A DNA stretch of 64,000 nucleotides, the filler included, from Collodictyon triciliatum (Eukaryota): NCBI GenBank assembly GCA_043381765.1. It is 5 parts of 5 records of this genome, joined end to end, with 100 filler letters (N's around TTAATTAATTAA, not from the genome) between each part and the next. Parts side by side here need not be neighbours in the genome. Positions count along the whole stretch, not along the records: positions 38,615 to 51,372 come from JBHJMP010002105.1; 4 more parts are not named here. One strand, written 5' to 3'. Below, one piece after another: positions 38,800 to 40,781 of this stretch (the stretch's first letter is position 1; the number at the start of each line of letters is the position of its first letter). Made by a program: the position numbers and the translations under genes. The notes below the pieces were generated by a model that ran no database searches, was not told the origin of the DNA, and saw only the letters and a list, made by a program, of their open reading frames with translations.

Positions 38800-40781
38800 T
38801 CTAAAGGAAAAAGTAAAACAGAGACTTTCAGATAAAGAAAAGAAATCGTCTTGAGTTTGAGAATCTAAAGTTTGTAAAACCAGACTATCGAAATGTGAAA
38901 ACATCTCTAAAGTCGATTGTAAAGAATGCGGCTAACTATTACAAAACCAACGATACGGTTTTGTTATGTCATAATTTGGTTACCGATACTTATCTGTTTG
39001 CAAGATGTTACATATTGAAATCACAACAACTCCCAACAATCAGTGAAATGTTTTTTTTTTGTACGGTTTAAAGACAGTCGGAGTAGTTTCACAAGATAGA
39101 CCCTCAAGATTAAGAAAAAAAAAAAACAACCAAAAATGAGTAAAGACATGATGACTTTTTATCTCAATGATTTTCGATTCCTTTTGTCCCGAGGAGAACG
39201 CTCTCCGTTGGTTGGACTGTCTCGTGTATCATTGTGCTTGGCGAAGCAAATGCTGACAGCTTATCGTTATAACATTAAGGAACATTTTGTAAAGAGGCTA
39301 TTGCGCTTTATAAATGAAACAGTTCCTAAATATGAGAATATTACGGAAGCTGTTAAAAAGGCAGAGTTACGAAAAATAAGAAAAGCCATATTCAAGAAAC
39401 TCGAAATACCGGAACAATATAAAGAATTGATTAAACGCATTTGCATCATACCATTCCCAGCGATATTGTAAATAGTATCGAATATGATGTCAAAGTCAAT
39501 CCAAATAAGTTCATTCCATGTGTGATTTACATGAATCGTATTTTTGAGGACATTGGAACCAAACTGTTTCAATCAATCTCTATAAGAACTAACAATATAC
39601 CATGTTATATTACTCAAGATACGGTATGTTTGATAGAGCTATGTATTAAGCGGAAAAACATAATAAATGAAGAATAAATCAGTATGCAAAGAGACCATAT
39701 GGGATGCGTTCTTTGAAATGAAGAGGGTCTTTCATCAAATAGACTACAATTTTAAATACACGATACAAACAGACGGCTTGGCGGTGTCATCGTTGTTTGG
39801 AAAGAAAGGTATTTCGATTTCAAAATTGAACTATAATCCAGAAAAAACCAAGAATATGTTTATATAGATGAACTTTCCGAAGAGCAGTTATCTTTATTAG
39901 CGACAAAAAAAAAAAAATAGTTGGAGTGGACACAGGCAAGTTTAATTTGGTTTACATGGTGGATGAGACAGGTAAGAAATTACATTACACGGCACACCAA
40001 ACAAGACATAATAGCAAATCTCTTGAAAATCACAAAATACTCTTGCGAAAAAAAAAAAAAGAAAAGTACAAGGATTTTGGGTGTATACATGCCAACAGAT
40101 TTACAAAATGCTGTTTCTTTTGGTCTCAGGACTTTTGAAGAGAATCGACAGTTTGAGACGTCAAGAATATATTCAATCGATTTAGAGACAGAACTGTGTA
40201 AACATAATTCATACTGGTCGATTATGAATAATTTCGGGAATATGTATCTATGAGATCAAGACTCCAGATAAAACTATCCAGACTTTATGAACAAGTAACT
40301 TTTCGAAAGATGAGATGAGACAGTATGTTAATACAAAAAGAAGTGAACAGTTGTTTATGGACCGAATCGAAAAGACATTTGGCAAGGATGTTGTAGTGGC
40401 CTATGGAGACTGAAGAAGAAAATCTCCGATGAAACATTTTATTGCAACAATCAGAAGAGGATTATGAAAAACACTATCCAAACGTTTTGAACCAGTTAGT
40501 GTAGATGAATTTAGAACCTTCAAGGTGTGCTGTAACTTCGAAAAAGAACTGGAATATATGAAACTGAAAGGAAATGCAAAAAAGTGTTTAGATGTCTCAT
40601 ATGTAAAGAATGTAATCGCTCAGAAAGCAAACAAAGTGTATTCTGGACAAGGGACTTTAAAAGCGCTAAAAATATACCCAAGAAAGTTCTTTCAATTCTT
40701 CAAAAAATACATGCACCTCTCTTTAAAAAAACAGGCTGTCGGGTCTCTACTGGAGCCTTCACCACTACACAATCTTTGTGA
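38800..40781 (+). pseudogene. Decayed Fanzor (Fanzor1-like, TnpB-related RNA-guided endonuclease)
   Basis: Across frameshifts: VKTSLKSIV, YNIKEHFVKRL, YTIQTDG, RuvC-I IVGVDTG (D 39929), VAYGD(W>*), RuvC-II VDEFRT.K.CC (E 40507), CKEC zinc finger, RuvC-III WTRDFKSAKNI (D 40653). Intronless, with in-frame TGA at 40411 and 40465. Confidence 0.85.

Follow-up and report, generated by a model that had tools for sequence, protein, structure and literature searches.

Fanzor1 proteins are eukaryotic, transposon-borne homologues of TnpB. When intact, such a protein binds a guide RNA, a transcript of the 3' end of the element that carries it, and cuts the matching DNA via a single RuvC active site. To our knowledge Fanzors are the only RNA-guided DNA nucleases of eukaryotes, and they are under development as compact genome editors. 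Here we describe a locus of this kind in a 64-kb stretch of DNA (64,000 nucleotides (nt), filler included; called the window below) from the protist Collodictyon triciliatum (NCBI GenBank assembly GCA_043381765.1). Judged by its sequence, the region 38832-40781 on the + strand is very probably a pseudogenised Fanzor1 copy, one of a multi-copy and diversified repeat family that would form a sub-branch of the giant-virus Fanzor1 clade.

As far as the cited sections go, reports of Fanzor1 cover protists, fungi, arthropods, plants and giant viruses (PMC10432273; PMC3627910). PGv-1 and related Mariner-type elements of algal viruses are the giant-virus examples in the cited part of Bao and Jurka 2013 (PMC3627910), which also describes virus-integrated Fanzor1 elements in cellular contigs. 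The RuvC-II site of these proteins is rearranged, i.e. Gly or Pro stands at the canonical Glu position and a Glu is found in the motif D/N-E-[FY]-[RK]-T-S about 35-45 residues downstream (in the excerpts of PMC10530073 and PMC3627910 that give this definition). Gly in place of the canonical Glu is regarded as a Fanzor signature in the same excerpts (PMC10530073; G500/E536 in PMC3627910), while canonical TnpB has Glu where the family described here has Gly (PMC10530073, same excerpt). Fanzor1 is a known kind of element that has already been reported, and the present copy adds a further member.

Identity and active site

The only long single-frame stretch of the relic is the piece 40291-40590, which gives 100 amino acids (aa) if two TGA codons are read through. 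A search of this piece against 1.84 billion representative proteins returned 648 matches at E<=1e-3, 61 of them at <=1e-10 and none at <=1e-30. The top match was a fragment of 209 aa (P0002, 57% identity), and the top full-length match was an intact protein of 634 aa (P0005, 47% identity). When P0005 was compared with the window by tblastn, its residues 3-624 were collinear with 38835-40778 (+) in five segments of alternating frames; the summed E was 4e-73 without composition correction and 4.4e-69 with it. In a frameshift-aware alignment the identity was about 46% (272 identical over 593 aligned residues). No second Fanzor copy was found in the window, where the other P0005 matches were at chance level (E >=0.5), and BLAST of 38615-42500 against itself likewise revealed no further copy of the element.

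P0005 connects the window to Fanzor1 proteins of solved structure. Its residues 14-607 align with SpuFz1, the Fanzor1 of Spizellomyces punctatus (8gkh, E 9e-37), and it also matches the Fz1 of Parasitella parasitica (PpFz1; 9cf0, E 7e-34) and GtFz1 of Guillardia theta (9cer, E 7e-16). These solved Fanzor1 proteins are all three of the PDB chains that match P0005 at E<=0.01. Moreover, the 100-aa piece matches the Parasitella and Spizellomyces Fanzor1 proteins directly (E 6e-6 and 6e-4), with all other chains at E >=0.9. No TnpB, Cas12f or Fanzor2 chain was among the PDB matches of the window pieces or of P0005. The initial annotation had called the locus a Fanzor relic, which is borne out and can be specified as Fanzor1.

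With prokaryotic TnpB (IS200/IS605, e.g. ISDra2) and with Fanzor2 the window shares the order of RuvC-I, zinc ribbon and RuvC-III as well as a weak OrfB_IS605 match. The long N-terminal half of the window family, in contrast, matches Fanzor1 only: the stretch 38835-39800 is collinear with P0005 residues 3-327, i.e. with the long WED/REC half of Fanzor1 type that is absent from TnpB and Fanzor2. A Fanzor2 or TnpB would have about 400 aa, the canonical RuvC-II Glu and an IS607/IS605 context with TnpA. The relatives of the window have about 630 aa and Gly at the canonical site, and no TnpA-like open reading frame (ORF) was found on the relic contig.

The motifs TDG, GVDTG, AYGD, VDEFRT, CKEC and RD..SAKNI, which the initial annotation had read across frames in TnpB/Fanzor order, are all present at the positions it gave (Table 1). 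The Asp of GVDTG lies in a G-x-D-x-G strand as in Fanzor1 RuvC-I, and that of TRDFKSAKNI in the R-D-x-N-[SA]-A-x-N-I context of RuvC-III. For RuvC-II, the Gly of AYGD is at the canonical Glu position and the Glu of VDEFRT is downstream. The window copy has the diagnostic Fanzor active-site layout because this Glu is relocated and the Gly of AYGD occupies the canonical site. In a 12-row alignment (the window and 11 relatives) the G at piece residue 39 is nearly invariant and E73 is invariant. The D-E-D triad that had been proposed at 39929, 40507 and 40653 is therefore partly reinterpreted: the three codons are intact, but the Glu at 40507 is the relocated Fanzor residue and not the canonical RuvC-II Glu of TnpB. 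Correspondence with SpuFz1 was counted along the P0005/8gkh alignment, with residue numbers as given in section 10 of PMC10432273, the part of that paper used for them.

Table 1. Coordinates of the Fanzor1 copy, its motifs and lesions, and gaps of the window (frameshift positions are good to about +/-30 nt)
Feature	Position	Strand	Remarks
Linkers	12778-12877, 25646-25745, 38515-38614, 51373-51472		Neighbours across a linker may not be genomic neighbours
Internal N gaps	27175-27749 and 35476-35494
5' non-coding part of repeat unit	38700-38831	+	Left end upstream of 38700 or beyond contig start 38615
Fanzor1 pseudogene (very probable)	38832-40781	+	Intronless, collinear with 634-aa relatives, ~10 frameshifts, 3 in-frame stops
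Frameshift	~39051		T10 run
Frameshift	~39115-39131		A12 run
Frameshift	~39433		No run
Frameshift	~39666		A5 run 8 nt away
TDG in IQTDGLAVS	Frame-1 ORF 39667-39867	+
Frameshift	~39842-39862		A6 run
Frameshift	~39900-39917		A13 run
RuvC-I Asp codon (GVDTG)	39929-39931	+	Aligns with D of P0005 GADPG, 8gkh chain position 777 = SpuFz1 D383
Frameshift	~40048-40076		A13 run
Frameshift	~40212		No run
In-frame TAA	40229-40231	+	P0002-guided path: opposite Met of YEMFKDY; P0005 has Lys
1-nt deletion (one G of a TGG codon) giving a frameshift	40316-40317	+
AYGD	40399-40410	+	Followed by TGA at 40411
Vestigial canonical RuvC-II site (G-D of AYGD) and TGA	40405-40413	+	Gly codon 40405
In-frame TGA	40411-40413	+	Trp in 11/11 aligned relatives, SpuFz1 and PpFz1
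In-frame TGA	40465-40467	+	Arg in 10/11 aligned relatives, Leu in 1; Trp in SpuFz1
Relocated RuvC-II Glu codon (VDEFRTFKVCC)	40507-40509	+	Aligns with E of P0005 INEFRTSK, 8gkh position 935 = SpuFz1 E541
Zinc-ribbon (TNB) remnant	40528-40613	+	First Cys pair degraded (CCNF), second cluster CLICKEC (40593-40613) retained
Frameshift	~40576-40583		A6 run
RuvC-III Asp codon (TRDFKSAKNI)	40653-40655	+	Aligns with P0005 TRDLNSAQNI, 8gkh position 1000 = SpuFz1 D606
3' non-coding tail of repeat unit	40782-40850	+	Covered by family contigs

A complete zinc ribbon would show CxxC ... CxxC between RuvC-II and RuvC-III. The window copy has Phe at a nearly invariant Cys (window residue 83), and the frameshift at the A6 run 40578-40583 falls between the two Cys clusters. 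The relatives match Pfam Cas12f1-like_TNB, the best of them with 26.3 bits, right at the cutoff. Since other copies of the family keep the Cys, the incomplete ribbon is a decay of the window copy and not a property of the family. A further peculiarity is an insertion of about 32 residues after RuvC-I, which is shared by P0002 alone among the 11 aligned relatives.

In summary of the comparison with the solved proteins SpuFz1, PpFz1 and GtFz1, the window family resembles them in its whole-length domain order (seen via P0005), in the active-site residues, in the relocated Glu of D-E-[FY]-[RK]-T-S with Gly at the canonical RuvC-II site, and in the zinc ribbon between RuvC-II and RuvC-III. It differs in that the window copy is dead, the sub-family is shorter (~630 aa) and only distantly similar in sequence, and the insertion after RuvC-I is present. 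RNA-guided cutting is known for other Fanzor1 proteins, and by analogy the ancestor of the window copy would have worked in the same way.

Decay of the copy

Frameshifts were located by frameshift-aware alignment of the window with P0005, P0002, P0006, P0003 and P0004, using penalties of our own choice, hence the tolerance given in Table 1. Among a total of about ten, four are at A/T runs of 10-13, two at A6 runs and four outside runs >5 nt. The path guided by the closest relative (P0002) contains three in-frame stops and the one guided by P0005 contains five. There is no in-frame ATG between a stop at 38814 and 39045, and the ATA at 38832 appears to occupy the position of the relatives' ATG start. 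In the 12-row alignment, Phe replaces two nearly invariant residues, the Ser of T-S-K and a zinc-ribbon Cys. The open reading frame of a Fanzor1 protein is absent, and the window copy cannot make the protein, because the start codon is lost, three stops and about ten frameshifts interrupt the frame, and the conserved Ser and Cys are gone. The three catalytic codons survive because the decay is still moderate. That the copy is decayed had been stated before, and we arrive at the same view.

Part of the apparent damage may be assembly error, because six of the ten frameshifts fall at A/T runs of 6-13 nt and a host gene of the same window is likewise broken, at the A7 run 55637-55643. Both facts speak against the pseudogene reading, and the first agrees with an earlier suspicion that some of the breaks at homopolymers are sequencing errors. 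Taken to its end, this argument would make the gene intact in the organism and every break an error of a low-quality draft. The four shifts at A/T runs of 10-13 and the two at A6 runs fit such a view, as does the nature of the window, in which draft contigs are strung together by linkers of 44 N + TTAATTAATTAA + 44 N instead of forming a continuous genome, and a long host ORF pair is split at a run of A. We nevertheless consider an intact gene very improbable, given that four frameshifts (39433, 39666, 40212, 40316) are outside runs >5 nt and that the three stops are of the substitution type, with the start and the conserved Ser and Cys lost as well. Moreover, a contig of 238 nt from a freshwater metagenome (run X2, record 11) matches 40366-40603 with two substitutions and no gaps; both TGA codons and the A6 frameshift fall within this stretch. 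This agrees with the claim that the stops at 40411 and 40465 are real. Finally, at precisely these lesions the window departs from other family copies, so the state of the window is that of a distinct allele or copy and not noise.

One could also suppose that the gene is functional, with TGA as a sense codon (Trp code) or with programmed shifts. The TGA at 40411 is indeed at an invariant Trp column, and that at 40465 is opposite Trp in SpuFz1. In close relatives, however, the latter position is Arg in 10 of 11, and the TAA stop and ten frameshifts persist under any code. The standard code leaves host ORFs of 866, 420 and 333 codons open; these contain 17 TGG and no TGA, and the six ORFs tested hold 28 TGG in 2254 codons. 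Open frames of this kind would hardly be expected if TGA commonly coded for Trp. A Trp code for TGA is rejected on this account, and a functional gene of this kind is hardly credible. We return to the reading of a pseudogenised Fanzor1 copy in what follows.

The repeat family, its relatives and its 3' end

Contigs of four public runs (X1-X4) were aligned to 38700-40900 at >=80% identity. X1 and X3 are small organism-labelled runs (coded A and B) that may not come from the window's species; X2 and X4 are freshwater metagenomes. No public run contained more than 0.08 of the sampled window words, and there was no RNA run among them. On 38700-40845 there were 353 matching contigs in X1, 381 in X3, 132 in X4 and 4 in X2, the 132 coming from one freshwater metagenome. 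The identities are widely spread: for the classes >=99, 95-99, 90-95 and <90% the counts were 23, 67, 138 and 125 in X1, and 27, 91, 142 and 121 in X3. A single position is covered by as many as 24 different contigs of the same run. As far as such alignments tell, the hundreds of contigs, their spread of identity and this depth of overlap mark the element as an old repeat that exists in many copies and has diversified.

It is conspicuous that other members keep the reading frame at several lesions of the window. Among the variants listed (40 of 661 substitutions and 12 of 108 indels), an extra T after 39433 occurs in at least four and at least three contigs of two runs, an extra A after 40214 in at least two and at least three contigs of two runs, and an extra G after 40316 in at least five contigs of X1, seven of X3 and two of X4. 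If applied locally, the letters at these three sites keep the frame and give relative-like readings; with the G restored at 40316 the local reading is FRKMRWRQYVNTKRS. The 1-nt loss reported earlier near 40317 is thus exact, one G of a TGG codon that other family copies possess. Similarly, a G at 40538, which yields the zinc-ribbon Cys, is present in most other copies (at least 13 contigs in X1, 23 in X3 and 7 in X4). It had been supposed that an active family once existed here and that better copies may remain. The hundreds of contigs at 80-99% identity, many of them without the frameshifts at 39433, 40214 and 40316, support this indirectly.

The ends of the repeat unit can be placed in part. 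Family contigs of X1, X3 and X4 cover the first bin, 38700-38773 (summed depth 72/52/37), and X1 record 1 extends over the start of the aligned stretch at 38700. On the other side the summed depth at 40772-40845 is 54/21/0/16, and at 40846-40900 it is nil in all four runs. The right end is placed about 65 nt after the ORF because the cover stops at about 40845, and the unit measures at least 2.15 kb (38700 to about 40850). The earlier proposal to define the ends by aligning copies yields an approximate right end, while the left end would lie upstream of 38700 or beyond the contig start.

Relatives of the window protein are numerous. Of 6480 candidates, 1665 proved to be relatives of P0005 at E<=1e-5, and P0005 itself is 80-88% identical to four loci on giant-virus contigs of IMG/VR. 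Relatives of the window piece are encoded at 70 viral loci of that database, with no more than 51% identity over full matches; by our own count 40 of the 70 carry GVMAG contig names. Among 595 candidate metagenome stretches, 398 encode relatives, the best at 49% identity. The closest relatives of the window are environmental fragments (56-57% identical), followed by giant-virus genes (49-51%). Cluster look-ups for names yielded 'hypothetical protein', a single evident mis-annotation and the UniRef entry 'Transposase, viral metagenome', and nothing else.

A tree of 56 rows was calculated with IQ-TREE in quick mode, the window being read through with X at every break. The window groups with the environmental fragments P0002 and P0003 (SH-aLRT 99), and this trio is the sister (91) of a P0005-like group of 16 rows. 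Both groups are within a clade (97) that holds all 13 rows from contigs >=40 kb. In a phylogeny with giant-virus Fanzors such as the initial annotation had in mind, the window falls inside a clade that holds giant-virus Fanzor1 genes. The length of the window branch (1.0) is large, in keeping with a pseudogene, and its exact position is soft because three fragment rows fill <30% of the columns. On the strength of the sequences compared, the window family is a sub-branch of a populous, virus-rich Fanzor1 clade. Of the suggestion of a new Fanzor lineage, the distinct sub-branch is what remains; the branch is nested in a very populous clade, with 648 library matches and 1665 relatives of P0005. 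Because the family is a sub-branch of a clade that is abundant in giant viruses, it probably originated by virus-host exchange.

The P0005-type Fanzor1 genes of giant viruses (IMG/VR GVMAG) are the nearest intact relatives. They share the clade, the lack of introns and the length with the window copy. Unlike them, the window copy resides in a cellular contig beside an intron-rich host gene, and their 3' RNA of ~140 nt is unrecognisable in the window (2.3 bits). These likenesses raise the question whether the copy is an integrated fragment of giant-virus DNA rather than a transposon multiplied in a cellular genome. The nearest intact full-length relatives belong to giant-virus metagenome-assembled genomes (P0005 and its four 80-88% identical loci), the window branch nests in the clade to which the 70 viral loci belong, and the virus-integrated elements in cellular contigs mentioned above (in the cited part of PMC3627910) would provide a precedent. 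We regard this as unlikely. In two organism-labelled runs, the hundreds of contigs with a divergence of 1-20% resemble a cellular repeat family of some age, identity to viral genes reaches 49-51% at best, and a host gene rich in introns lies 2.2 kb downstream. The 12.7-kb contig carries no other virus-like gene, although a viral neighbourhood could lie upstream, beyond the point where the contig starts. A member of a cellular repeat family remains the preferred reading.

The 3' end was approached through giant-virus and metagenomic relatives (loci L001-L085, alignment A4). They share a structured RNA of about 140 nt that overlaps the end of the ORF and its stop codon and ends in AAGGTGTAAA, the point where the similarity between the relatives' loci stops. 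The structure has 27 pairs with 97.9% paired cells, vs 44-55% with the partners slid; 13 pairs changed on both sides, none of 500 shuffles was as good, and three helices show strong covariation. Presumably, as these alignments suggest, this RNA is the omega RNA scaffold together with the right transposon end. In the window copy the scaffold would end within the 3' tail. A covariance model, R1, was made from 53 relatives, and its best matches in the window (E >=0.088) fall in unrelated AT-rich places. A likeness of 40758-40871 to R1, seen by eye, lacks statistical support. For 40690-40999 the fold z-score is -1.05. When the right-end motif was sought as its reverse complement upstream of 37 intact relatives, 16 gave loose matches, at inconsistent positions.

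Besides the breaks at homopolymers, a number of results weigh against a Fanzor1 copy of a multi-copy family or are neutral to it. At the protein level, the three best PDB matches of the N-terminal piece 39100-39471 are all Fanzor1 chains, with E of 0.17-0.74 that are not significant alone; the PDB search gave no Fanzor match for the piece 39872-40138 and nothing for 40536-40781. None of nine single-frame pieces reached a curated Pfam cutoff, the best being OrfB_IS605 with 18.1 bits vs 30.5 (E 0.0033). A word-indexed homology search of the 100-aa piece against longer proteins produced 11 candidates and no match. As for the family, its contigs are short (<=451 nt among the pieces listed), which, with the variants listed above, limits what they can say on copy number, on whole copies and on the three stop codons elsewhere in the family; and X1 and X3 may come from another species than the window. 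As for a transposon, only low-complexity pairs were found when terminal inverted repeats were sought around the relic, and neither a target-site duplication near it nor a transposase on its contig, of the Mariner or any other type, was found. At the 3' end of the relic no significant remnant of the relatives' RNA was detected with R1; 40758-40871 scored 2.3 bits (E 1.1 in 401 nt).

Genomic setting and significance

The contig that bears the relic (38615-51372, 12.7 kb) begins right after an N linker and has a G+C of about 30-35%. The relic is intergenic. About 2.2 kb downstream of it lies a host AAA-ATPase gene rich in introns, whose exons at 44861-48326, with introns between, match Pfam AAA and AAA_lid_3. 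Because this gene shares the contig, the DNA around the relic is nuclear and eukaryotic. Just downstream of the relic, inverted repeats of 35 nt (41121-41155 / 41745-41779, 80% complementary) bracket 589 nt. The unit 41121-41779 resembles a miniature inverted-repeat transposable element and is bordered by (CAAAAA)n-type microsatellites. The repeats contain a 19-nt motif, CCTTTGAATCGAATAAAGG, that occurs six times in the window at <=3 mismatches vs 0.06 expected (22349, 41130, 41752(-), 45873(-), 58350 and 59095), several of the sites being just 3' of coding regions. The motif may act as a dispersed signal, either regulatory or for 3' ends; alternatively, it may represent the tip of a small repeat.

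Elsewhere in the window, microsatellites are very dense throughout, i.e. (TTC)n, (GTTTTT)n, (AT)n and A/T runs, with 57 A/T runs >=10 nt in total. The contigs tend to finish in microsatellites, which fits an assembly broken at simple repeats. The split host gene mentioned above consists of the ORFs 54665-55666 and 55590-58190, which overlap in different frames exactly at the A7 run. The pair ends in an RBR/IBR ubiquitin-ligase part, and its protein atlas matches are generic RBR ubiquitin-ligase clusters. A search with the host ORF of 866 aa gave no match at E<=1e-10, a threshold that was too strict. The run is probably a homopolymer length error of the assembly, or else a real frameshift. The block 1-5300 is richer in G+C (44-47%) and contains a remnant of a non-LTR (lacking long terminal repeats) retrotransposon (Pfam zf-RVT 2140-2733) as well as two Ser/Asp-rich ORF segments that resemble each other, 1426-1890 (+) and 4895-5308 (-). 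Exons of a gene of glycoside hydrolase family 92 (alpha-mannosidase-like) are at 20906-23565 (-), with Pfam E of 7e-28 and 3e-8. Neither tRNA genes nor Rfam families were found in the window.

For annotation, 38832-40781 should be masked as a transposon pseudogene and not called as a gene. The dead copy is useless in itself; its value is that it flags an abundant and diversified Fanzor1 family in a eukaryote and in freshwater metagenomes. It has been proposed that viruses spread Fanzors (Bao and Jurka 2013; Saito et al. 2023), and if intact members exist, the family would supply a host-side partner for this proposed route and one more nuclease to assay. We can only tentatively suggest, with more doubt than confidence, that activity of the family in this freshwater eukaryote continues or ended only very recently, with intact copies that possess their own guide RNA, and that the family constitutes a distinct cellular Fanzor1 sub-family. 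If this were true, the ~32-residue insertion after RuvC-I would mark a cellular Fanzor1 sub-family beside the giant-virus genes, and the family would document a definite instance of Fanzors being exchanged between giant viruses and a host, besides being the source of a new compact (~650-aa) nuclease to test.

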